This document shows, in pieces, positions 6,128-63,867 of a stretch of DNA of 64,000 bases (the first letter of the stretch is position 1; each line of letters opens with the position of its first letter). The notes below the pieces were generated by a model. That model was not told the DNA's origin and made no database searches. It saw only the letters and a program-made list of their open reading frames with translations. The position numbers and the translations under genes were made by a program. This DNA is from an uncultured Fidelibacterota bacterium (GTDB taxonomy: Bacteria; Fidelibacterota; Marinisomatia; Marinisomatales; UBA1611): NCBI GenBank assembly GCA_913040915.1, contig CAJWHW010000005.1, forward strand, positions 14,663 to 78,662, given 5' to 3'.

Positions 6128-6888
6128 TTATCTAAGATTAACGAAACAGGGCAATGGTCGGAACCAAAAATATCAGAATGAATATCCGCATCAATACAAA
6201 ATTTTACCATATCTTCATTCACAAAAAAGTAATCAATCCGCCAACCTACGTTTCGTTCTCTTGCACCAAAACGGTACGTCCACCAAGAATATCGTTCTCC
6301 TTCTTCATGAAATAATCGAAATGTATCTACCCACCCTTCTTCTACATATCGGTCTAATTTTTCACGTTCGATGGGCATAAAACCAGATGTATTTATATTA
6401 TCTTTTGGCCTGGCCAAATCTATGGGCTGGTGAGCTGTATTCCAATCCCCTGCAACAATAACATTATTTCCAGATTCAACCTGCTCATTGATTATTGGAA
6501 GTAAATCATCATAAAAATCTAATTTATATTTCAGACGTATATCATCTTTTTGCCCATTTGGGAAATAAATATTATAGATGAGAAAATTCTCATGCTCTGT
6601 CAATAGAACACGGCCTTCATCGTCATATTTTTGGATTCCCAATCCTTCTTGAACATAGAGCGGTTCTTCTCTACAGAAGGTTGCGACACCACTGTAACCT
6701 CTGCGTACACCAGAATGCCAATATGCATAATACCCATGGTCTTCTAAAATCTCCTTTGATAACTGATCAACATGTGCCTTTGTTTCTTGAATACATAAGA
6801 TATCAGGCTGTTCATGATCTAAATAATCTAAAAACCCTTTTTTTACCGCTGCCCTAATGCCATTTACATTCCAAGAGATAAGTTTCAT
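6124..6888 (-). CDS. xth: Exodeoxyribonuclease III (AP endonuclease)
   Basis: SWNVNGIRA, CIQETK, GYSGVA, EGR, YFPNG, GDWNTAH, GWRIDY, GSDHCP. Confidence 0.95.
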   Translation of the reverse strand: MKLISWNVNGIRAAVKKGFLDYLDHEQPDILCIQETKAHVDQLSKEILEDHGYYAYWHSGVRRGYSGVATFCREEPLYVQEGLGIQKYDDEGRVLLTEHENFLIYNIYFPNGQKDDIRLKYKLDFYDDLLPIINEQVESGNNVIVAGDWNTAHQPIDLARPKDNINTSGFMPIEREKLDRYVEEGWVDTFRLFHEEGERYSWWTYRFGARERNVGWRIDYFFVNEDMVKFCIDADIHSDIFGSDHCPVSLILDK

Positions 6889-7904: not shown

Positions 7905-7976
7905 GGCCCGTTCGTCTAGTGGTTAGGACTCCAGGTTTTCATCCTGGCAACAGGAGTTCGATTCTCCTACGGGCTA
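7905..7976 (+). tRNA. tRNA-Glu (TTC); CCA not encoded
   Basis: Acceptor stem GGCCCGT/ACGGGCT, D-arm with TAGTGG, anticodon arm CCAGG-TT-TTC-AT-CCTGG, T-arm AGGAG-TTCGATT-CTCCT. Confidence 0.97.
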
Positions 7977-17020: not shown

Positions 17021-17419
17021 TTAAAAACCCTTTATAATTTTATTCAACATTTGAAATTAATGTAAAAACTAAAGAGAAAATTACGCATTCATTATTTGGA
17101 ATAATGTATTAATATGAATAGAAAGTTGTCGGCCCCAATTTCTGCAATGCAAAAGGAAAATCAAATTGGTAACCCTAAAAGATAAAGAATTTCCAGAATT
17201 GTAGTAGCATCGGTAAGGAATGTTAGTACCACATGATCATAATGAGGAAATATCTGGTTTTTTTATAGTTAATATCTAAAACTATTTAATATAATACCTG
17301 TCAAATTGCAATTAGAAGAACTGAATAAATGAATCCGAACTAGATAGAAGACTAATTCTTCCTAATCCTACATAGAGAATGCACTAAGTGTATCTATAAG
17401 GATTATAGGATATAAGTTT

Positions 17420-18304
17420 TTAGATTATGATTTGTTTGAATTCGTTGTAAGTATAGAAGGTAAGATCAATAGACTCTTCTAAAATCGGAAGAGATTGCAG
17501 TCCCTGACCACCAAAAACAACTTTTATTCCTAAATCATGTGCCAAACTAACGATAGATTTTGTCTGCTTTTCTGTTTTCTGTAGGTTCTTTTTTACAGTT
17601 GCCATACAGCATTGCATGTTACAGAGATAAAAAACGATTATATCTATTTGCTTCTTTTTTAGAATGGCTTGTAGGTCTCCTAACTCAGCATGCGACCCGG
17701 TATTTAGTACGTTATATCCATAATGTCTTAAAATAATTTCAGACATTACGACCCCAAGATCCGGCAGATTATCCTCAAAATTAATACAGAGTGCAGTTTT
17801 ACCATTGAATTTACCGTTGGGCTTATTTTGGTTTAAATTTTCTGCTACCCTGGTTATTATCTTCCTACTGATAAATGTTTCAACCTGGGATAAGTAACCT
17901 TTTCTCAACGAATTTTCAACGATCATACTCGCTGGTTCAATGACTTCATCACAGATCTCTTCAACTTCGACTCCTTTTAGATAAATCCCATTGATAATCG
18001 TACTCACACTAAGATCATCAGATTCAAGGCTTGCATCTGCTAATATTACAGCTAATTCTTTGTAGCTCTTTTTGTTTATCAGGCTGTGAATCTTTTTATG
18101 ATCCCGATTATTGATACCAAGTTTTGTATTTTTCCCAGCTTTTTCTTGAGCTTTGTAAAAATCACGAATATTTTGCATTGTGAACTTTCTATGACCGCCT
18201 GCAGTTTTAGTACAACTTAGTTTATCATTATCTGTCCAGCGTTTTAGGGTAGAGATATTCACACCCAATATTTCTGCAACTGTTTTTGAATTAAGATATC
18301 TCAT
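17420..18304 (-). CDS. BldC/Xis-type (MerR-like) wHTH regulator fused to a degenerate cobalamin-binding-like sensor (CarH/LitR architecture)
   Basis: N-terminal LNSKTVAEILGVNISTLKRW...KTAGGHRKF; four-helix cap (EICDEVIEP); Rossmann part LG...ILRHYGYNVLNTG...VVFGGQG. Confidence 0.75.
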   Translation of the reverse strand: MRYLNSKTVAEILGVNISTLKRWTDNDKLSCTKTAGGHRKFTMQNIRDFYKAQEKAGKNTKLGINNRDHKKIHSLINKKSYKELAVILADASLESDDLSVSTIINGIYLKGVEVEEICDEVIEPASMIVENSLRKGYLSQVETFISRKIITRVAENLNQNKPNGKFNGKTALCINFEDNLPDLGVVMSEIILRHYGYNVLNTGSHAELGDLQAILKKKQIDIIVFYLCNMQCCMATVKKNLQKTEKQTKSIVSLAHDLGIKVVFGGQGLQSLPILEESIDLTFYTYNEFKQIII

Positions 18305-18345
18305 GAATAAATATACTTAAAATGGCCAATAAATTAAACTAGTTA

Positions 18346-18363
18346 ATGAGCGTTATGGGCTTT
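18346..18363 (-). promoter_or_regulatory. Tandem 9-bp direct repeat, site A (candidate operator, autoregulation)
   Basis: ATGAGCGTT-ATGGGCTTT on + strand, 42 bp upstream of the regulator start; -10-like TAATTT 9 nt downstream on the minus strand. Confidence 0.7.
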
Positions 18364-18444
18364 TTGATATAAAAATTAAATTATCTACTATATAGCATAA
18401 ACAAAAAAAATTAACTAATGTAAGACTTATTTATTATTTCAGTT

Positions 18445-54810: not shown

Positions 54811-55950
54811 CTAACTATTTCTTTTTACATATATCATAAAGGATGAAGAATAATTACTGTAAAAAACACCAAGTCCATCACCAAAATTTGAGTCTGGCAA
54901 TATATAGATATTTTGGCCAACGGGATCTCCGCTAAAATAATTAAAATAAGATTCACTAGTTGCCTTGAAGGTCATAATATGGTAACCATAATAATCAAAA
55001 TATAGCCACATGATTTGTGTAGGAGTTTCTTCTACGTTCCATTGCCATGGATTTATACGATATGGTGTATTATTCTCATCACGAAGGTAATTACCCTTCC
55101 AGATACGAAATCCAAGTGTGGTGTCATAGATCAGATTGACAAAAGCACTATCTCTTATGCTATTATAATTATAATCAAAAAATGCTCCACTATCAGGATC
55201 AATGGTTGAGCTTAACGTATCTAATGGTTCCAGACCTCTCACATTTGATTCGAGAGCATAACTTAGAATTTTAATTGTTTGAAAATTATCTGAATCAAAA
55301 TCAACTCCAAAGTAAGGGTAACTGGCAAAACTCTGTGTAAAGCAATCTCCAAACCTGAATTCAACAGAATCTACATTTATATTGTTCTGGAGTACAAAAT
55401 CTTCAGGATTATCAATCAACTGGCTTAGTTGTTCAATCGAGTAGCCTTCTAGATTTTTTACGTCAACCATTTTAGTAGGAATTACTTCACCATCTGAACA
55501 TTGATAATCACCTAAATCTGCTGAAGTAAGATTTAAGATACTTGGCACTGTAGTTATTGCAATAATAGAATCTTGTTCATGAATTACGGAGAGTTGGTAG
55601 GTCTGGCCTGATTGAATGATAAAATTCATCCAAGCAGTTAATTCTTCATCTGTTGAGGTTTGTGAGAGTGGGAAATATTTACCCGTTCCAACATTATTAA
55701 ATGTCAATTTTTCCATTGTTGAGTCATTGATAAGTTCGACAATTGCACCATCTACCCAGAGTGAATCCGATAAAATATCTTCATCTATTGTGGCAGTTCT
55801 TGAAACTAAAACTGTATCTAATACTGGTAAACCTGCAGTAATTGATGCAAAAACAACGAGTTTTTGCTCATATTTTTCAATGCTATCGTTTAAATCACAG
55901 GATTGAATAATTATGCTAAACATTATTAAAGTCAATAATTTTAACCTCAT
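54811..55950 (-). CDS. DUF4249-like lipoprotein, TBDR partner (likely start 55950)
   Basis: Lipobox IQSC, EQKLVV.A.I, A.TTVP, C-terminal SN..DGLGVF; directly downstream of the TBDR. Confidence 0.65.
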   Translation of the reverse strand: MRLKLLTLIMFSIIIQSCDLNDSIEKYEQKLVVFASITAGLPVLDTVLVSRTATIDEDILSDSLWVDGAIVELINDSTMEKLTFNNVGTGKYFPLSQTSTDEELTAWMNFIIQSGQTYQLSVIHEQDSIIAITTVPSILNLTSADLGDYQCSDGEVIPTKMVDVKNLEGYSIEQLSQLIDNPEDFVLQNNINVDSVEFRFGDCFTQSFASYPYFGVDFDSDNFQTIKILSYALESNVRGLEPLDTLSSTIDPDSGAFFDYNYNSIRDSAFVNLIYDTTLGFRIWKGNYLRDENNTPYRINPWQWNVEETPTQIMWLYFDYYGYHIMTFKATSESYFNYFSGDPVGQNIYILPDSNFGDGLGVFYSNYSSSFMIYVKRNS

Positions 55951-55952
55951 GA

Positions 55953-58325
55953 TCAAAACTCCCAAGTAAAACCAATGGTCGGAATAATTGGAAATAGGCT
56001 GATTATTTCTTCCCTTATTTTTCCTTCATCGGGTTCATCAACATTTGGCTCACCTGGGTCAGGCTTACCATTACCTGCCCCTATTTTATCTTCTCCAACA
56101 CCAATATCATGCTGGTTTATATCCCAATCATCATCGTCATCCAAACCATTATATGTATTACCTAACCTGTACACCTTTCTAAATGGATTCTTACGATTGA
56201 ATGTGTTAATTATTTGGAAGTAAATATCAACGTTCGTTTTACCAAATTTAGCATGATACACTGCACCAATATCTAATCTGCTATAGGGTTCATATCTAGC
56301 TGAGTTTCTAGACCCAGGTATTGTACGAAAGATTTCTTCCGGACTTTCAGGAAATTTTTGAATATAATACCCTAATATTGGTGTGTAAGCCTGACCTGAT
56401 TGCAGAGCCAATCGCCAGTTCACTTCCCACTTATCATTAAACTGATAATTTCCGAGCGCACTGAAAGCATGCGTCCTATCCCAATTAGTAAAATATTCTT
56501 TTTCACCATCGTCATAAATGCTATTCATTATTTTTCTTGATACAGAGAAAGTATAAGCTAGCCAGCCACTGAGTTTACCCGCCATTTTTTGTCCAAAAAT
56601 TTCTAATCCATATGCGTAACCGTTAGCAGGTGTAACGATAGATGCCAAACTTTCATCATCTACCTGGGCATCTGTTGATGACCTTGTTTCTTCATAGGTT
56701 AATAAGTTTTTTAAATCTTTATAATAGCCTTCAATCTGAAGCTTGTATGTACTTCTAAAATATTCTTCATATCCCAGAACAACCTGTATAGACTTACCTG
56801 GATTCACAGAGTTGTCCACAGCGATCCAGTTATCAAGTATTGGAGCATTGAAATCATCCTGGAATGTGCTGATAAATTGATGGTAGTTACCTACAGAAAA
56901 GTTGATATACCTGTCATCTGTAAGTAAATATTTAATCCCAAGACGCAAGTCAGGGTACAAAGAATCTGGATAAACACTGTATCTATTTATTCTGATTCCC
57001 GGTTCAATGATAAATACATCATTTTTTTCATTCTTGGCTTTAAAGTAAAAAGCAGACTCACTAGGAGATGTTATAATTTCAAACTGCGTTGAATCTTGAA
57101 ATTTATTAGTGTATTCAAATCCTAAATTTTTAAATTGATAACCAAATTTGAATTTCGTTTCAGATGATACAAACCAAGAGAAATCTCCTGAAAGAGTTTT
57201 ATCATCAATTTCATTATAACTTACTAATCCTCCGGAACCACCTAGACCAAAGCTTGTAAAGAACATACTGTTCGCAGCAAGAAAGTTTCCAATAAATTTT
57301 TCATTGAATACACGTCTATAATGCCCACTTATCGTATTATTACCCCATCTACCATCAAGGCCAAAGGTATCGAAAATAATATCATCGATTCCTGAATAAT
57401 AACTAACAGAGATCCTGTCTTTAGGTGAAAGATCAGAAAAAATATGTCCTTGGATATCGTAAAAGTAATACGGGGGAATATTATCGGCTGTACTGGCAGG
57501 TAGAACCTTGGGAAGTAGTATATCAAAATATGTTCTACGGCCTGACAAAATCCAGGCTCCTTTGTAAGAGGGGCCCTCGAGGGTAGTCTGTGCCGAGAGC
57601 AAAGATAAATTTGCTTTACCGTTAAACTTATTTCTATTTCCTTCTCGACTGATGACATTTAGAACTGCTGATAGTCGTCCACCGTACTCTGCATTGTAAG
57701 CCCCCTTAATCAATTCTGCTTCTTTTACACCGTCAACAATAAAGTTAGAAAATACACCACCCAAGTGAGATGGATTATAAACAGTAATACCATCAAGCAT
57801 AATCAGATTTTGGTCAGTATTACCCCCTCTTATAACAAGACCGGTGCTGTATTCTGAAGTTGTTAGAACACCAGGCAGGGCTTGGATAGTACGGAATAAG
57901 TCTGGCTCAGCGAGTGCAGGAGCAGATTTCATCATCCTAGGGCTTAAATTTATTTTACTTGGCTGTATATTATATTTTCTCTGGATTTTTTCGGCTGTAA
58001 CATCGACTTCATTCAACTCAAGAAGTTCTTGTTTAAGTTGGATATCCAGATTAAGAGATTCACTTCGGCCTATTATGATTGATTGTTTAGAGAGCTCGAA
58101 TCCTACATATGAAACAATGATATCATATTCTCCTGATGCTATATCTTGTAAAATGTAGTATCCATTGTAATCTGTAGCCATTCCTTGACCTGTCTGCTGA
58201 ATAAATACATTAGCACCTATTAAAGCTTCTCCGGATGAAGAGTCAGTTACAAAACCTGTGATAATTCCACCTTGAGCTAATAAAATTGATATATGTAATA
58301 AAAATGATAGAAAAATTCTTGACAT
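55953..58325 (-). CDS. TonB-dependent receptor
   Basis: ITGFVTD..SGE.LIGANV, EPDLFRTIQALPGV, IRGG..DQNL..LDG..VYNP.HLGG.FS, AEYGGRLS.VL, GWLAYT, WDRTH, IPTIGFTWEF. Confidence 0.92.
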   Translation of the reverse strand: MSRIFLSFLLHISILLAQGGIITGFVTDSSSGEALIGANVFIQQTGQGMATDYNGYYILQDIASGEYDIIVSYVGFELSKQSIIIGRSESLNLDIQLKQELLELNEVDVTAEKIQRKYNIQPSKINLSPRMMKSAPALAEPDLFRTIQALPGVLTTSEYSTGLVIRGGNTDQNLIMLDGITVYNPSHLGGVFSNFIVDGVKEAELIKGAYNAEYGGRLSAVLNVISREGNRNKFNGKANLSLLSAQTTLEGPSYKGAWILSGRRTYFDILLPKVLPASTADNIPPYYFYDIQGHIFSDLSPKDRISVSYYSGIDDIIFDTFGLDGRWGNNTISGHYRRVFNEKFIGNFLAANSMFFTSFGLGGSGGLVSYNEIDDKTLSGDFSWFVSSETKFKFGYQFKNLGFEYTNKFQDSTQFEIITSPSESAFYFKAKNEKNDVFIIEPGIRINRYSVYPDSLYPDLRLGIKYLLTDDRYINFSVGNYHQFISTFQDDFNAPILDNWIAVDNSVNPGKSIQVVLGYEEYFRSTYKLQIEGYYKDLKNLLTYEETRSSTDAQVDDESLASIVTPANGYAYGLEIFGQKMAGKLSGWLAYTFSVSRKIMNSIYDDGEKEYFTNWDRTHAFSALGNYQFNDKWEVNWRLALQSGQAYTPILGYYIQKFPESPEEIFRTIPGSRNSARYEPYSRLDIGAVYHAKFGKTNVDIYFQIINTFNRKNPFRKVYRLGNTYNGLDDDDDWDINQHDIGVGEDKIGAGNGKPDPGEPNVDEPDEGKIREEIISLFPIIPTIGFTWEF

Positions 58326-58331
58326 AAATGA

Positions 58332-59288
58332 TTATTTCCCTAAATAATTTAAATTTTCAATATTAAATGGGGTTGGTTCTATTTCATATTTTTCGAAAAT
58401 TTCTTTTGAATCACATATACTACCCTTCACAAGGTCATTTAATTGGTCTTTACCTGCAGGGAACCACTCAAATCCATCAAGTAATCCAGCTATGGTAGTT
58501 ATTAGAGAAATTGGAGTTGGTAACATGAAAACTCTTTGCCCCGTTGCACTTGCTATTGATTTGACAATTTCATTCCACGTAACATCGCGCAAACCACCAA
58601 GTAATATTGTTTGGCCAATAGTACTTTCATCAAATAGAACTTTAACAAAGATCTTAGCTACATCCTTTACATGTATCATACTTAAAGCGTAATTGCCAGA
58701 ATCTAGCGGATTTAATCCAGTGAAAAATGAAGGAGCGGGAAAGGGTAGAAACTTTGGGTATGGTACTAGATTTAGCATTAGCTTATCAAGCATCATGCAA
58801 AATTCAGGTCTATCTTCACCACGAGGATCACCAAATAATGATGACGGACGCATGATTGTCCATTGAAGTTCTGTATTTTTAATTACTTGTTCTGATAAAA
58901 ATTTTGCCTGCATATAATTCGAACCATTTGGATCAGGGCTTGCTCCAAGTGCACTCATTAATAGAAAGCGTTTTACACCTAATTCTTGGGCAATTTCTGC
59001 AATTCTTTGACTTCCTCTAAATTGTAGTTTGTCATTTGTTAAGTCTCTTTTTGGGAATTCTCTGATTAAAGCAATCAGATAAATGACCGCTTCACATCCA
59101 TTAAGTGTCTCTCTAATCGCGTTATCATCTTTTATGCTGCCCTTTACCGTTTCACATTTTTCTTGTTGGATTACCTTACTTTCAGAACCGCCTCTTACAA
59201 GTAATCTTGGGATATGTTCATTATGAATCAATTCATCAACGATGTAAGAGCCGACATAGCCGGTGCCACCAAAAATAGCCACTTTCAT
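58332..59288 (-). CDS. Atypical SDR, NAD(P)H-binding (complex I NDUFA9-like)
   Basis: FGGTGYVG, RFLLMSALGA, Y..AK..SE, IMRPS..FG, IHVKDVA. Confidence 0.85.
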   Translation of the reverse strand: MKVAIFGGTGYVGSYIVDELIHNEHIPRLLVRGGSESKVIQQEKCETVKGSIKDDNAIRETLNGCEAVIYLIALIREFPKRDLTNDKLQFRGSQRIAEIAQELGVKRFLLMSALGASPDPNGSNYMQAKFLSEQVIKNTELQWTIMRPSSLFGDPRGEDRPEFCMMLDKLMLNLVPYPKFLPFPAPSFFTGLNPLDSGNYALSMIHVKDVAKIFVKVLFDESTIGQTILLGGLRDVTWNEIVKSIASATGQRVFMLPTPISLITTIAGLLDGFEWFPAGKDQLNDLVKGSICDSKEIFEKYEIEPTPFNIENLNYLGK

Positions 59289-59479
59289 GAAAGATCAACC
59301 TCAACAAAATCATTTAAATTTCTATTAAAAATATTTTTTGAGAAAAATTCATTGATTATATTTTTAAGATCTTCAGACTTGTATATCTTCGTAAGATTCT
59401 CCTGAAGTGAAAAAAAATCAAATCCTTTCGTGAAAGGGGGCTTTATAACTTGACTAGCTTTTATTTTATAAATATTCAT
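59285..59479 (-). pseudogene. Internally deleted SRPBCC-family gene (64-aa ORF)
   Basis: N-terminus MNIYKIKASQVIKPP..KGFDFFS.QENLTKI resembles the SRPBCC start (Q.i..p..evfdFF..P.NL..ITP), joined to a C-terminal-helix-like DLKNI segment; far shorter than a full domain. Confidence 0.55.
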
Positions 59480-59521: not shown

Positions 59522-59539
59522 ATGAGCGTTATGAGCGTT
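59522..59539 (-). promoter_or_regulatory. Tandem 9-bp direct repeat, site B (candidate operator)
   Basis: ATGAGCGTT-ATGAGCGTT, 43 bp upstream of ATG 59479; a degenerate third unit AATAATGTT at 59513-59521. Confidence 0.78.
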
Positions 59540-59702
59540 TAATATTATTTATCAATTTTATATTATATTGATCAAATACTGAATCTTATTCACTCCGTAC
59601 TGACTTTAGTGATATAAATTATCAACTGCTTCGGTTTAACTTCTTAGTATTTGAAAAATTACATATCTTGGTACTGAATTTAGTGTAATTGTTTAGTTTG
59701 TA

Positions 59703-61061
59703 CTAAAGTGATTTGAGTAAGTTCATATTCGCAATATACTCACTTATATCAAATTTATTTTTACAACCATTATAACTCATATATCTTATTTTCCCATATA
59801 CAGGACGTTCAAACCAGGGACGGTCATGTACTCCTCCCAGACTCCAAGCGATACCTGTATAGCCATTTGCATCACGACCATCTAGCTCATACTTATCATT
59901 CAAATCTATTGCCGTTTGTAACGCTATTTCGGGAGAAGGGCTCCACTCTAAAATCTTTTTAGCCCAATACATTCTCATGTAAGTATGCATTTTCCCTGTA
60001 TACACCATTTGCAATTGGGCAGCATTCCATAGGTCATCATGAGTTTCTGCAGTTTCAAAAGCTTCTGGAGGATATAGATATTCCCGTTTATCATTCCTGT
60101 GATAATAGAGACTTTCCTTTGCCCAATTAGGAAACCCATCGAAGGAATCATAATTATTATTATAAAAACAAAAATTAGCAGCCAATTCCCGCCGCACTAT
60201 AAGCTGCTCTAAAATACTTTTGTTTTCAATTGTATCAATTTGACTGAGGTTTAACGCCACGCGCTGTGAAGAGATGTGACCAAAGTGCAAAAATGGACTC
60301 ATATTAGAAAGAACATCTTGGTTTGGGTTATTGCGATGATTGGTATAATTTTCAATCGGGAGCTTAGAAAAATATTCTAATTGTTTCTGAGCCGCTTTTT
60401 CTCCTGGTAACAACCAGTCCACCGGTACAACACTATTATCAACATTCAGCTTCTTGTAAATATTTGGCCAATCAATATCCCAACCGGGTGAATTAATATT
60501 CACAGAGTGCCGTTTCAATTTAGGAATCTCTGTTAAAAATTCACCTAGGTGTTTTTGTATTTTTGGCCTGATGGTGTATGCTCCCCACTCCTGCTTTTCG
60601 CTTGTCACCCAAATAGGTACAATATTATTGGAATCAACTATATAAAATGGAATATTAATGGAGTTTGAAATTTTCTTGGTCCTCCGGCGATGGAAACGAA
60701 GCGGTGAAAAATCTGTGACCAAAATGGCAATCTCTTCTTTTAATATTAGCTTTGGAAGCTCATTTTTTGGCGTACCATTTAGTAGACGAAAACTTATATT
60801 GAGTTTTTTTAATGATTTTTCTGTTTCATATAGCCCCTGAAATAAAAAATCATATTGTCGGATATTTGAACTGGGAAAGTCACCGATATAATTAAAACAT
60901 ACCATGAGAGAATATCCATTTTGCAATGCTAAGTCCTGTGCATGTAACAAAGCCCAATTATCATAAACTCTTTTGTCACGCTGCATCCAGTATAGTACAG
61001 TTTTACCTTTCAGAGAACCAGATTGTAATTGTTTTATTCGATTTGGATGGACAACCGACAT
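59703..61061 (-). CDS. phrB: Class II CPD DNA photolyase
   Basis: VLYWMQRD.R..DNWAL, LVTDFSPLR, GAYTIRPKI, SPFLHFG, EQLIVRRELA.NF, MHTYMRMYWAKKILEW, DGRDANGYTG. Confidence 0.93.
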   Translation of the reverse strand: MSVVHPNRIKQLQSGSLKGKTVLYWMQRDKRVYDNWALLHAQDLALQNGYSLMVCFNYIGDFPSSNIRQYDFLFQGLYETEKSLKKLNISFRLLNGTPKNELPKLILKEEIAILVTDFSPLRFHRRRTKKISNSINIPFYIVDSNNIVPIWVTSEKQEWGAYTIRPKIQKHLGEFLTEIPKLKRHSVNINSPGWDIDWPNIYKKLNVDNSVVPVDWLLPGEKAAQKQLEYFSKLPIENYTNHRNNPNQDVLSNMSPFLHFGHISSQRVALNLSQIDTIENKSILEQLIVRRELAANFCFYNNNYDSFDGFPNWAKESLYYHRNDKREYLYPPEAFETAETHDDLWNAAQLQMVYTGKMHTYMRMYWAKKILEWSPSPEIALQTAIDLNDKYELDGRDANGYTGIAWSLGGVHDRPWFERPVYGKIRYMSYNGCKNKFDISEYIANMNLLKSL

Positions 61062-61073
61062 GATGGAATTAAG

Positions 61074-61787
61074 TTACTTTTTAGCTATTGAAAGACCGCC
61101 ATCAACTGGAAAAGTTTGTCCCGTAATCCAATTATTATTTGGATCAAGCAGAAACTGCAGCATACTGCTTATGTCTTTTGGTTTTCCAACAGAACTAGTT
61201 ACGTGAAGATTTTTACTGTATTCGAGACTGGATGGATTATTCATGATAGCAGAAGATAGCGGTGTATCAACAAGCCCTGGTGCTACAGCATTGAAACGGA
61301 TTGATTTTCTCGCATAGGTTATTGATGCAGATCTGACTATTGCTTCAATACCTGCCTTGGCCGCAACAATTGCTTCATGGTTAGGTAAACCAATACGCAC
61401 TGCCGCAGTCGACATTAATATAACAGATGCATTGCTTAAAACTTTACCTGCAGCACGGACAACTGCGTAGGCACTTTTTAGGTTTGTAGAAATAATATTA
61501 TCAAATTCTTTTTCTGTTATGCGATGTGGTGACTTTAATAAAATACTACCTGCTAGATTAACGATACCATCTACATTACCTAATATTTTTTTGCCATCAG
61601 AAATAAAGTCCAAGGTATTATTAAACGATGTTGCATCAACTGAAGCGGACTGCAGATTTCCTTGACGAGGATATGCCAAAAGGTTTTTATGATAACCAAG
61701 AAAGAGCTTGTTTCCCTTGGCTTGCAGATCCGCTACCAGTTGAACACCGATACCACCGGCGGCACCAATTATAATGTAGTTATTCAT
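61074..61787 (-). CDS. SDR oxidoreductase (photolyase-associated type, lacking catalytic Tyr)
   Basis: GAAGGIG, NLAGSI.LK, STAA...GLPNHEAIVAAKA, NAVAPGLVDTPL, WITGQ..PVDGG. Confidence 0.88.
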   Translation of the reverse strand: MNNYIIIGAAGGIGVQLVADLQAKGNKLFLGYHKNLLAYPRQGNLQSASVDATSFNNTLDFISDGKKILGNVDGIVNLAGSILLKSPHRITEKEFDNIISTNLKSAYAVVRAAGKVLSNASVILMSTAAVRIGLPNHEAIVAAKAGIEAIVRSASITYARKSIRFNAVAPGLVDTPLSSAIMNNPSSLEYSKNLHVTSSVGKPKDISSMLQFLLDPNNNWITGQTFPVDGGLSIAKK

Positions 61788-61961: not shown

Positions 61962-62265
61962 TTAATACGATTTTTTATCTAATATTTCAATAAAGTTCAC
62001 ATCCAGATCTTTTGTATAAATATACCCGGTTATATCATGATAGTATTGGAATTTTGGATGCATTTTTATCCACAATAGCAAAATAATTAGGATGCTGATC
62101 TAGTGTAACTAAGTCCAGATTTATATTATTAAACATCAGGACGGAACATATTTGATTTTCGAGAAGTACATCACAATCAAAACGCTTTTTGTAATACTCA
62201 AGTAAACTTGAAATATTTTCCACTTGGATAGAAACATGATCAATAATTGAAAGAATATTTCTCAT
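61962..62265 (-). pseudogene. Frameshifted VOC/glyoxalase-family gene
   Basis: IDHVSIQVENI...YY N-terminus ends at TGA 62035; the VOC C-terminus GYIYTKDLDVNFIEILD (cf. Y..DPDGN.IE) continues in another frame to TAA 61962. Confidence 0.7.
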
Positions 62266-62304: not shown

Positions 62305-62322
62305 ATGAGCGTTATGAGCGTT
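62305..62322 (-). promoter_or_regulatory. Tandem 9-bp direct repeat, site C (candidate operator) next to an extended -10
   Basis: ATGAGCGTT-ATGAGCGTT, 40 bp upstream of ATG 62265; minus-strand TGTTATAAT at 62298-62290. Confidence 0.8.
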
Positions 62323-62430
62323 ATACAATATATTTAATAAACTTTTTTTAGAATTTATCTAAATGAGAATCAAGTCCAATTGCAATCATATAGATAACAA
62401 TTTATAATTCAAATATTTTGAATACTTTTC

Positions 62431-62994
62431 CTAATCTATTTGGATAAGAATTTCATTTTTTCTAAACGGTGGGAGTGCCCATGGTGAGTTATATTGAGCT
62501 ACCATTGATTTTCCATTAATCTGTAAACCCAGTTCTGACATTCTTTTTTCCAACCTATCTTGAAAATATTTCACCCGTTCTTCTGTGGCCCAACCCCCAA
62601 ATGTAATAGCAGCTACTTTCGATAATTTTCGTTCTTCTAATTTTACATTTTTAAGATTTGGGCTGGGTAGATTTTCAAATTGGTGCTCCCTCGGCATTAT
62701 AAAAAGTACTTCGTGTGTTTCCTCTTCCCCATCAAGTTCGGTAGAAATCACCGGTGCTGTCATAGCAATTTCCATTTGGCTCTCATTCCCGCCAAAAATA
62801 TAATTGGCGATTCTTCGAAAACCCTCGTTTTGTGCTGACCTATAGGGTAAACTAACCTGAGTAACCGCGATAATCATAGATTGATATTCTCGAATTTCAA
62901 AATTACCCCTTTTGTCTATTAATTTATAGATAGGGTTTTCAATAGCCATAAGTGAACCAATTCCTAAAAATAACATTAATATTTTCTGCTTCAT
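62431..62994 (-). CDS. SOUL heme-binding protein
   Basis: E.P.Y, FEIREY, GFRRIANYIFGGN, IAMTAPV, F.MP, F.GWA, AQYNSPW..P.FR.NEI. Confidence 0.92.
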   Translation of the reverse strand: MKQKILMLFLGIGSLMAIENPIYKLIDKRGNFEIREYQSMIIAVTQVSLPYRSAQNEGFRRIANYIFGGNESQMEIAMTAPVISTELDGEEETHEVLFIMPREHQFENLPSPNLKNVKLEERKLSKVAAITFGGWATEERVKYFQDRLEKRMSELGLQINGKSMVAQYNSPWALPPFRKNEILIQID

Positions 62995-63009
62995 TAATAA
63001 TTCCTTTCT

Positions 63010-63867
63010 TCATTTTATGAATGGTATTAATACAGGAGTTTTCTGTTTATACTCGTTATACGATTCTAAATGGCCCCATTTTTGATCGGAATTAGCCTCC
63101 AGCAAATTAATTCCACTTACTCTGGTTAATAAAGTGGTTACGAATACCGGTGAAATGAGTGTTACATATTGCCAGCCTGATAAAACTGGAAAAGATATAA
63201 CTGCCATTCCAACCCAAACCATGATTTCACCAAAATAATTAGGATGACGAGAAATAGACCAGAGTCCGGTGGTAATAAATTGACCTTTATTTTTATGATT
63301 ATTTCGAAAATGCCGCTTTTGTTCATCAGCCAATACTTCAAAAGAAAATCCGAATAACCAAATAATTAAGCCAATGATAAAATAAAGATCATTTTTCAAA
63401 TCAGCATTATTTAATATAAGCGTAAGGCCATTTGCAGTTGTTAAAAACACCCACAATGCAGACATATTGAACCAAAGTAAAAATCTATAAAAGGAAGTTT
63501 TTACATCATGAAATCTTTTGTCTTCACCAACCTGAGACACTCGAATAAATAAAAAGAGTCCAAGACGCAGTGCCCATATTAAAATAAGAATAGCAACAAC
63601 CTGTGAACGGAAGTTCAATTCATCTACACTATAAATAGCAATTCCTATCATTACTAAATAGGCAAATGTTCCTGTGATATCATAGTACTTTTCAGTTTTG
63701 AATAGATAAGAAGGAATAAAAATTAGCCAATGAATGAAAAATCCAATTGCGGCAATATACATAAGACCAGGATAACCATAAATATTTGGCCCACCCTGAG
63801 CTCCTGCATATCCAAATAAAAGTGCAACCATAAATAAAAACATAGATTTGAAAATATTAATCATCAT
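63010..63867 (-). CDS. DUF1295 (steroid 5-alpha-reductase-like) membrane protein
   Basis: EKYYD.TG, WALRLG..LF.R, GEDKRF, E..AD.QK..F, FITTGLW..SRHPNYFGE, SG...LE. Confidence 0.9.
   Translation of the reverse strand: MMINIFKSMFLFMVALLFGYAGAQGGPNIYGYPGLMYIAAIGFFIHWLIFIPSYLFKTEKYYDITGTFAYLVMIGIAIYSVDELNFRSQVVAILILIWALRLGLFLFIRVSQVGEDKRFHDVKTSFYRFLLWFNMSALWVFLTTANGLTLILNNADLKNDLYFIIGLIIWLFGFSFEVLADEQKRHFRNNHKNKGQFITTGLWSISRHPNYFGEIMVWVGMAVISFPVLSGWQYVTLISPVFVTTLLTRVSGINLLEANSDQKWGHLESYNEYKQKTPVLIPFIK

Follow-up and report, generated by a model that had tools for sequence, protein, structure and literature searches.

The window analyzed here, a stretch of 64,000 nucleotides from contig CAJWHW010000005.1 of an uncultured Fidelibacterota bacterium, contains a single gene for a transcription factor built like CtMerR and CarH, the photoreceptors that depend on adenosylcobalamin (AdoCbl). 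A first-pass annotation of the sequence had described this regulator as a sensor of CarH architecture that has lost both histidine ligands of vitamin B12 and gained a cluster of cysteines. Proteins of the CarH type serve as the model of light sensing by B12 and have found wide use as optogenetic parts. The gene and the segments of its product that matter for this question are given below; positions are those of the window, and HTH stands for helix-turn-helix.

17420..18304, minus strand: regulator gene, a CtMerR/CarH-type transcription factor of the Cys-triad clade (open reading frame [ORF] of 294 amino acids with ATG start; Pfam, HMMER, AlphaFold2, Foldseek)
18149..18298, minus strand: N-terminal winged HTH, residues 3-52, of the BldC/excisionase-like MerR type (Pfam HTH_17 at 3-52, MerR_1 at 6-50)
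17831..18106, minus strand: four-helix cap, residues ~67-158 (DSSP helices 67-158 in the AlphaFold2 model; alignment to CtMerR)
17753..17776, minus strand: former His loop after strand beta1, E177-D-N-L-P181-D182-L-G184, with Pro in place of the axial His (alignments)
17597..17629, minus strand: Cys-triad loop after strand beta3, Y226-L-C228-N-M-Q231-C232-C233-M-A-T236, with an 8-residue insertion at the SxT position (multiple sequence alignment)
17507..17512, minus strand: retained GG of the B12-domain motif, G265-G266 (156/156 sequences; kept in subfamily B, see below)

The DNA-binding domain scores above the Pfam cut-offs for both HTH_17 (28.8 bits, cut-off 27) and MerR_1 (28.1 bits, cut-off 21.6). 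Residues 171-271 match the B12-binding family PF02310 at 24.0 bits, below its cut-off of 32.1, and the whole protein reaches 29.9 bits against the NCBIfam CarH equivalog NF052513 (TransRegCarH), for which the cut-off is 400. The NCBIfam model HTH_BldC (NF033787) gives 33.2 bits (E 3.3e-8), again below cut-off (77). The best relative of solved structure by sequence (HMMER) is CtMerR (8jbs_A, E 1.7e-20, regulator residues 7-270), and the PDB sequence matches of the HTH include RacA and the BldC chains 6ama/6amk.

An AlphaFold2 model was created from a 115-row alignment (mean pLDDT 86.4, pTM 0.79) and consists of a winged HTH, helices over residues 67-158 and a five-stranded Rossmann domain. When this model was searched with Foldseek, the cobalamin-binding domain of CtMerR came first (TM 0.84 on the target, rmsd 2.6 Å over 222 columns), followed by TtCarH, photocobilin, AerR and the SCHIC domain of AppA, with 8jbs, 5c8d/e/f and 8c31 among the matches. 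The CarH-type fold that had been read from the sequence is therefore kept. A feature search of the ESM Atlas yielded leads only (below 0.9), all of them B12-binding_2/HTH_17 clusters. CtMerR itself, from Chloracidobacterium thermophilum (PDB 8JBS/8JBT), is an AdoCbl-dependent photoreceptor of the MerR family whose DNA-binding domain is unlike that of TtCarH. The regulator resembles it in joining a divergent HTH_17/BldC-like DNA-binding domain to a four-helix cap and a Rossmann domain, and CtMerR is its best match in both sequence and structure; the two proteins share domain order and common descent.

The light-sensing signatures of CtMerR are GxxW, EH, GxxH and GxxxP (PMC11796333; papers are cited here by PubMed Central number). 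The HMMER alignment to CtMerR and our multiple sequence alignments place the regulator segments ENSL, TF, DNLP and GSHAE at these signatures, with the key residue replaced in all four: L133 stands at the Trp, T143-F144 at EH, P181 of EDNLPDLG at the axial His of CtMerR DLHEIA, and E207 at the Pro of GxxxP. The four strings quoted by the first-pass annotation (ENSLRKGYLSQVETF, FEDNLPDLG, FYLCNMQCCMAT and VFGGQG) are all present in the translation, and what it drew from them, namely that the Trp and EH of the cap are gone, that the axial His has become Pro and that the terminal GG is kept, agrees with these alignments. Besides L, TF, P and E at the signature positions, the regulator differs from CtMerR in its Cys-triad loop. 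YLCNMQCC is an 8-residue insertion after strand beta3 (motif YLC[DN]xQCC) that is absent from the His-bearing relatives in the alignment; CISAT of CtMerR falls at the CCMAT/YLC region, and alignments put either YLC or MAT at SxT. In the AlphaFold2 model the Cys segment (residues 227-233) is coil directly following strand beta3 (222-226), and residues 231-240 are the least confident block of the Rossmann domain (pLDDT 68). Two further cysteines, C173 and C31, are conserved also in His-type relatives, so that three (C228, C232 and C233) are specific to the clade.

CarH is defined by Wx9EH together with ExHxxG...SxT/V...GG, and represses on 11-bp repeats (PMC8156234). Like CarH and the class I LitR proteins of Thermus thermophilus, Myxococcus xanthus and Bacillus megaterium, the regulator couples a MerR-type DNA-binding domain to a B12-type domain, has direct-repeat sites (candidates in this case) and is associated with photoprotection genes in or beside its own cluster (PMC8156234). 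Unlike CarH, it lacks both His-containing motifs and its repeat measures 9 rather than 11 bp. By descent the regulator belongs to the CtMerR/CarH lineage, but a protein lacking both of the His-containing motifs that define CarH photoreceptors is not to be classed as a CarH.

Conservation and origin of the cysteine site

A word-indexed search returned 458 relatives of the regulator, and the best 120 of these are all at least 59% identical to it, marine, and from Marinimicrobia/Neomarinimicrobiota wherever they are named. An exhaustive search of 50%-identity cluster representatives gave 972 proteins at E <= 0.001, and 104 of the best 150 are full-length. These 104 representatives are mostly of the His type: 76 have the axial His, 82 the Trp, 77 the EH and 70 all three. 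The remaining 28 lack the axial His and have Tyr (7), Pro (5) or other residues in its place, and C..QCC is found in only 3 of the 104.

A further alignment combined the query with 123 proteins from databases and 50 ORFs from related loci, 174 sequences in all, of which 156 carry C..QCC. This set, the window's subfamily, is defined by the motif, and takes in all sequences that share 52% identity or more with the query, apart from one with ambiguous bases (L009). C228, Q231, C232, C233 and the terminal GG are present in 156 of 156 sequences, H205 in 154 of 156, and E177, P181, D182 and L133 each in 155 of 155; position 144 is Phe in 136 and Tyr in 18 (154 of 155). A second Marinimicrobia subfamily (B; P0130, P0271-P0389), which came from a search with P0130 and shares about 30% identity with the window protein, was chosen without regard to the motif and has C..QCC in 120 of 120 among the matches listed. 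It also has L133 and P181, and keeps both the E177/P181/D182 loop and the GG. Over 28 rows spanning both subfamilies, the invariant residues include L133, R147, C173, N175, E177, P181, D182, N201, G203, C228, Q231, C232, C233, K243, T244 and G265-G266. The Cys cluster is thus conserved among homologs, a point in support of the first-pass annotation, and with 156/156 and 120/120 sequences sharing C228, Q231, C232 and C233 the pattern is far beyond chance.

In a FastTree phylogeny of 111 rows, which retains 12 of 30 Cys-type rows (18 were dropped) and is rooted at its midpoint only, the Cys-type rows fall together on one side of a branch whose SH-like support is 97. Their neighbors are His-type proteins of Marinimicrobia, KSB1/Zhuqueibacterota and Bacteroidota. 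That the Cys type is nested as one branch among His-type relatives and is invariant at its site argues that it arose once, from an ancestor of the B12 type, and has since been under strong purifying selection and not in decay.

Other clades that combine HTH_17 with a B12-type domain have also lost the axial His. These include P0231, P0234, P0254, P0260, P0261, P0265 and P0270, together with the groups P0178/P0220/P0233/P0248 and P0172/P0187/P0202/P0226; one of the clades has Tyr in place of the His yet retains the Trp. As 28 of the 104 family representatives lack this ligand, re-tooling of the HTH_17/B12-type sensor domain seems to be frequent, recurrent and largely unexplored.

The photoprotection island and its tandem repeat

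Genomic context was compared across 33 related Marinimicrobia loci. There the regulator sits in a co-directional island, with a DNA photolyase, the ortholog of the window's class II enzyme, directly downstream in 30 of 33 loci (gaps of 9-75 bp) and a DPRP (PF04244) cryptochrome/photolyase directly upstream in 21. DPRP is not adjacent in the other 12, which include the four closest relatives (L004, L005, L007 and L009). Across the loci, a short-chain dehydrogenase (SDR) is found in 20 and a glutathione peroxidase in 14, along with SOUL, DUF1295 and fatty-acid desaturase genes; crtI, crtB and rhodopsin occur in 5-6 of the 33 islands.

The window carries the same island at 54.8-63.9 kb, 41 kb from the regulator. 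It consists of DUF1295, SOUL, a split c2, SDR, a class II cyclobutane pyrimidine dimer (CPD) photolyase, a truncated c12, an NmrA-like reductase and a TonB-dependent receptor:

54811..59288, minus strand: operon behind the third repeat site, NmrA-like reductase to 384-aa protein (clusters 11, 10, 16)
54811-55965, minus strand: 384-aa protein
55953-58325, minus strand: TonB-dependent receptor
58332-59288, minus strand: NmrA-like reductase
59703..61061, minus strand: class II CPD photolyase (Pfam DNA_photolyase; TIGR00591 phr2 577.8 bits, cut-off 550; 59% identity to cluster 1)
61074..61787, minus strand: short-chain dehydrogenase of the island (cluster 4, 20/33 loci; Pfam, locus clusters)
62431..63867, minus strand: SOUL heme-binding protein and DUF1295, upstream of the photolyase operon (Pfam, locus clusters)

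Given this 41-kb distance and the direct adjacency in relatives, the regulator has moved out of its island in this genome, with its candidate operator kept. The light-linked role assigned to it earlier gains support from the island, in which it lies or to which a shared repeat links it, and from the adjacent photolyase in 30 of 33 loci. In relatives c2 encodes about 100 amino acids of weakly glyoxalase/VOC-like character. In the window (61962-62265, minus strand) it is in two frames, residues 1-73 matching 62047-62265 and residues 73-102 matching 61968-62057, which indicates a frameshift or an assembly error. The gene c12, at the head of the NmrA/TonB-receptor operon (59285-59479, minus strand), encodes about 162 weakly SRPBCC/polyketide-cyclase-like residues in relatives; in the window it is a 64-aa ORF whose match is limited to the first 42 residues.

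The equivalent island position, between DUF1295/SOUL and c12-NmrA-TonB receptor, is taken by His-type paralogs in three Marinimicrobia loci (L037, L041 and L042), where they adjoin CFA-synthase-like genes. The organism TCS55 has both types together, Cys (L031) and His (L042).

The regions upstream of the regulator have in common a tandem direct repeat of 9 bp whose consensus is wAwCGCTCA x2. In 32 of the 32 loci with sequence ahead of the gene, a set that does not include the truncated locus L035, two copies of TAACGCTCA end 42-45 nt before the regulator ATG. The resulting candidate operator is 18 bp long (TAACGCTCATAACGCTCA), and the window holds three sites:

18347..18364, minus strand: repeat AAAAGCCCA TAACGCTCA, 42 nt before the regulator ATG; presumed autoregulatory operator
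59523..59540, minus strand: repeat AAACGCTCA TAACGCTCA, 43 nt before the 64-aa ORF heading the NmrA-TonB-receptor operon
62306..62323, minus strand: repeat TAACGCTCA TAACGCTCA, 40 nt ahead of the ORF that opens the c2-SDR-photolyase operon

These three are the only exact 12-mer matches in the window and all lie on the minus strand; 2.6 matches are expected for a looser pattern with one mismatch. Genome-wide, in an assembly of 1.86 Mb in 71 contigs that is 85% complete (the scope of every genome-level absence reported here), a 13-mer has 6 sites compared with 0 for its reversed control. Four of the 6 lie 40-43 nt before an ATG and the remaining two are inside genes. The fourth perfect repeat (CTCATAACGCTCA; contig C12, ~6788-6800, minus strand) stands 43 nt before a 173-aa ORF for a multi-pass membrane protein, which is probably another member of the regulon.

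The 33 related loci contain 50 repeat sites, 49 of them on the gene strand, and these precede the regulator, c12-NmrA (8 loci), c9, c8 and SDR. In L020 and L022 a repeat lies ~113 nt before the rhodopsin gene, and crtI/crtB are neighbors in loci L019-L022 and L029. Where the repeat precedes rhodopsin, the predicted regulon would extend to light harvesting. The same repeat is found directly upstream of His-type family genes in Marinimicrobia, Ignavibacteria and a deltaproteobacterial metagenome-assembled genome (L037, L046 and L047) and elsewhere in two further loci. In a sample of the phylum, it lies 0.13-4.6 kb from His-type genes in 4 genomes, and the strict 13-mer occurs in 53 of 201 genomes, mostly once in each, compared with roughly 19 control matches in total. 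Since the motif accompanies the protein family from phylum to phylum, we read the wAwCGCTCA repeat as a putative operator of the family and not as a sigma-factor element.

This reading fits what has been described for BldC of Streptomyces, whose protomers bind head to tail, one to every direct repeat of 9 bp (PMC5859096). The regulator is like BldC in its DNA-binding domain (6ama/6amk, with NF033787 below cut-off) and in the 9-bp direct repeats of its candidate sites, and unlike it in having a sensor domain, BldC being a protein of 68 residues with none.

Contigs identical to the regulator gene (for example 500 nt with 0 differences) were found in two marine RNA libraries from two studies. Being contigs only, they attest presence in RNA preparations and are no proof of transcription, strand, start or end; their cover runs from 17532 to 18375, and the uncovered stretches beyond carry no information. 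One short piece (18235-18375) crosses the candidate operator, which could reflect read-through or DNA carry-over.

Proposed mechanism and alternatives

The first-pass annotation had suggested that a B12-independent sensor could suit B12-poor surface water. This rationale does not fit the genome, which encodes a MetH-like protein of 1191 aa, a B12-binding subunit on an ORF of its own (159 aa) and two enzymes of the methylmalonyl-CoA-mutase type (MM_CoA_mutase); the organism therefore depends on B12. PduO-type and CobA-type adenosyltransferases were not found in the assembly despite the two acyl-CoA mutases of AdoCbl type, and EutT was not searched for. The regulator is present in one copy. DPRP and BLUF were not found in the genome, nor was rhodopsin, for which the search control likewise matched nowhere; its two PAS_9 proteins have no LOV NCRFL motif, so no LOV was found, and no heme oxygenase of the HO type, which bears on the idea of a bilin, was detected. 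In the searched assembly there thus appears to be no recognizable photoreceptor besides the regulator.

On balance, we think it somewhat more likely than not that the regulator is a descendant of AdoCbl photoreceptors that acts as a repressor of a light-stress regulon independently of the B12-binding histidines, and that it senses through its Cys triad. What it senses is probably light damage, by a chemistry that has not yet been described. In the course of its descent from AdoCbl-dependent CarH/CtMerR photoreceptors, it has kept the BldC-like winged HTH, the four-helix cap and the Rossmann domain while losing the residues that hold and cap AdoCbl (Leu now stands for Trp, TF for EH, Pro for the axial His and Glu for the Pro of GxxxP). 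It has gained, where the lower face of the corrin would have sat, the invariant C-x3-CC triad, flanked by the invariant Glu177 and Asp182. By analogy with BldC, protomers may bind the tandem 9-bp repeats (wAwCGCTCA x2) head to tail, 40-45 nt before the start codons of the regulator gene, the photolyase operon, the NmrA/TonB-receptor operon and one further operon, at sites that probably overlap the promoters. Oligomers that the C-terminal domain holds together would repress the target operons in darkness. Repression would be released once the Cys-triad site is altered by light or, as is likelier, by the oxidative products of light, be it through thiol oxidation, disulfide formation, or loss or oxidation of a bound iron-sulfur (Fe-S) cluster or metal.

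In B12 domains such as those of MetH and CarH, the loops after strands beta1, beta2 and beta3 meet under the corrin. For this reason E177/P181/D182, N201/G203 and C228/C232/C233 should form one site, the geometry being taken from topology only. We give a little less than an even chance to the view that this site is a redox-sensitive thiol or a metal-thiolate (Fe-S) center that reports photo-oxidative stress. It is favored because the regulon, with its photolyases, glutathione peroxidase and lipid-protection genes, is typical of a response to photo-oxidation and no chromophore-specific motif is visible. A more tentative and rather doubtful idea is that the triad in the old cobalamin cleft holds a light- or oxygen-reactive center of a kind new to photoregulators, for which a corrinoid or heme with a thiolate ligand, an Fe-S cluster housed by a Rossmann domain of the B12 type, or a flavin that forms an adduct with Cys are candidates.

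Several points weigh against this explanation. Residue 140 is Gln in the window protein and His in 150 of 155 relatives. Subfamily B retains EEH in the cap helix, and this, together with the GG and T236 in both subfamilies, would fit residual corrinoid binding. Only three cysteines are specific to the clade, and two that adjoin each other are unusual among the ligands of a single Fe-S cluster. Instead of being the operator of the regulator, the repeat could serve a sigma factor as promoter element, and with the Cys type present in only 2 of 201 genomes of the phylum, a test for co-occurrence of motif and regulator has little power.

In a first alternative, the regulator would still be a cobalamin sensor of a non-canonical sort, with a Cys thiolate on the cobalt, AerR-like hydroxocobalamin or a base-off/His-off corrinoid. 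Thiols react readily with aquacobalamin, and in corrinoid Fe-S proteins a Rossmann domain carries cobalamin with no His to ligate it. The whole CarH-type cobalamin fold is kept in the regulator, including the GG and T236, as is EEH in subfamily B; AerR is among the Foldseek matches and the genome has B12 enzymes. We nevertheless regard a cobalamin sensor as unlikely: the W, EH, H and P of the four CtMerR light-sensing signatures are all replaced in the window protein, the 8-residue insertion falls where SxT contacts the nucleotide tail, and the scores for B12-binding (24 bits against 32.1) and CarH (29.9 against 400) are below cut-off.

Equally unlikely in our estimation is a direct photoreceptor in which heme, flavin or bilin would occupy the former corrin cleft as chromophore, one Cys serving as ligand or adduct former. 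A precedent is provided by the SCHIC domain of AppA, a B12-type domain switched to heme that is a structural match of the regulator (PMC3760249). The Rossmann part is flavodoxin-like, the island includes a SOUL heme-binding protein, and the invariant R147 and K148 of the cap could bind propionates or phosphate. AppA SCHIC and AerR, both Foldseek matches, are cases of a B12-type domain adapted to a different ligand or way of binding, and the regulator resembles SCHIC in its re-use of such a domain. However, the heme ligand of SCHIC is a His two residues beyond the position of the B12 His (PMC3760249), and the E177-G184 loop of the regulator has no His of any kind, hence none of the SCHIC type; it is moreover acidic (E177, D178 and D182), which is unfavorable for phosphate or propionate. 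Redox-active cysteines tune signaling in AppA, where the Cys-rich region is a separate C-terminal tail (PMC3760249), unlike the triad, which lies inside the Rossmann domain. No similarity to the Cys motifs of LOV or phytochrome proteins was seen in the regulator, and the failure to find an HO-type heme oxygenase in the 85%-complete genome also speaks against a chromophore of this kind.

A third possibility, which we rate slightly below these two, is that the C-terminal domain is a ligand-free oligomerization scaffold and that the signal comes from a partner protein such as the neighboring DPRP cryptochrome. Class II LitR proteins (PplR1/PmlR2 of Pseudomonas) are B12-free, control photolyase and related light-induced genes, keep only the four-helix-bundle subdomain and act as effectors of a separate short LOV protein that receives the light (PMC9758184). 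CryB binds the SCHIC domain of AppA (PMC3401432), and CarA of M. xanthus, a CarH-derived repressor without Wx9EH, acts B12-free (PMC8156234); the regulator is like CarA in these respects, its B12 independence being our reading. The DPRP gene is directly upstream of the regulator in 21 of 33 loci. CarA keeps the His motif of the B12 domain, is relieved by the antirepressor CarS and is not known to have a Cys-triad insertion; we set it apart from the regulator by description only. Unlike class II LitR, the regulator keeps both subdomains and no LOV protein was found in its 85%-complete genome, where searches for DPRP, BLUF and rhodopsin likewise found none. DPRP is also not adjacent in 12 of the 33 loci, the four closest relatives included, and a scaffold would leave unexplained an invariant C-x3-CC/E/D site across proteins that are about 30% identical. 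A complex prediction for DPRP and regulator residues 66-293 gave a score of 0.00 (mark 0.32), which weighs neither way on binding. The Cys-triad insertion in the Rossmann domain sets the regulator apart from CarA, class II LitR and SCHIC alike.

The photolyase was considered separately as a signaling partner. Operons of a regulator and a photolyase are usual for LitR-type regulators, and this photolyase is a bona fide class II CPD enzyme (TIGR00591 above cut-off); for these reasons the idea was set aside.

Finally, a degenerating CarH-type copy without sensing function, to which the displacement from the island, Gln at position 140 where relatives have His and two broken or truncated island genes might point, is very improbable, as the ORF is intact, its homologs throughout the clade lack the His ligand (P181 in 155 of 155), the changed positions and the Cys site are invariant in 156 and 120 sequences of the two subfamilies, the candidate operator is kept at its conserved distance, and identical sequence is present in contigs of the two RNA libraries.

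The Cys clade would place the same scaffold, the proposed mode of DNA binding and the regulon on a different, strictly conserved site based on cysteine. If the triad is indeed a reactive center, it would represent a new class of direct light or photo-oxidation sensor, and one that runs the photoprotection regulon of SAR406 (photolyases, rhodopsin and carotenoid genes, lipid-protection genes). SAR406 (Marinimicrobia) is among the most abundant uncultured lineages of the ocean. The proposal is directly testable, given a candidate operator of 18 bp, a short list of target operons and three Cys residues. Particular to the present genome are the 41 kb between regulator and island with the candidate operator kept, the two broken island genes, Q140 and the lack of any other detected photoreceptor. 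We found no literature that joins Marinimicrobia, photolyase, a transcriptional regulator and light, and none that links CarH-type regulators to Marinimicrobia; the similarity network in PMC11796333 might include such proteins.

Other features of the window

The genes that flank the regulator in the window (YceI, NTP-transferase, GT2, GH16 and C25 peptidase) adjoin it in 0 of the 33 related loci, and the local neighborhood was for that reason dropped as a clue to function. The 400-bp spacer downstream of the regulator (17021-17419) gave no Rfam match and no terminator-like site, and carries no trace of the photolyase, DPRP or MarR genes found behind the regulator elsewhere. The sole Rfam match in the whole window is a tRNA gene at 7905-7976 (plus strand). 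Between 19435 and 51925 lies a large region for the utilization of beta-glucan (laminarin-type), with three GH16 proteins, GH30, GH1, a PA14 domain, a TonB-dependent receptor and a LacI-type regulator, as well as an ABC oligosaccharide importer, PorV and several proteins with sorting tails of the type IX secretion system (T9SS).

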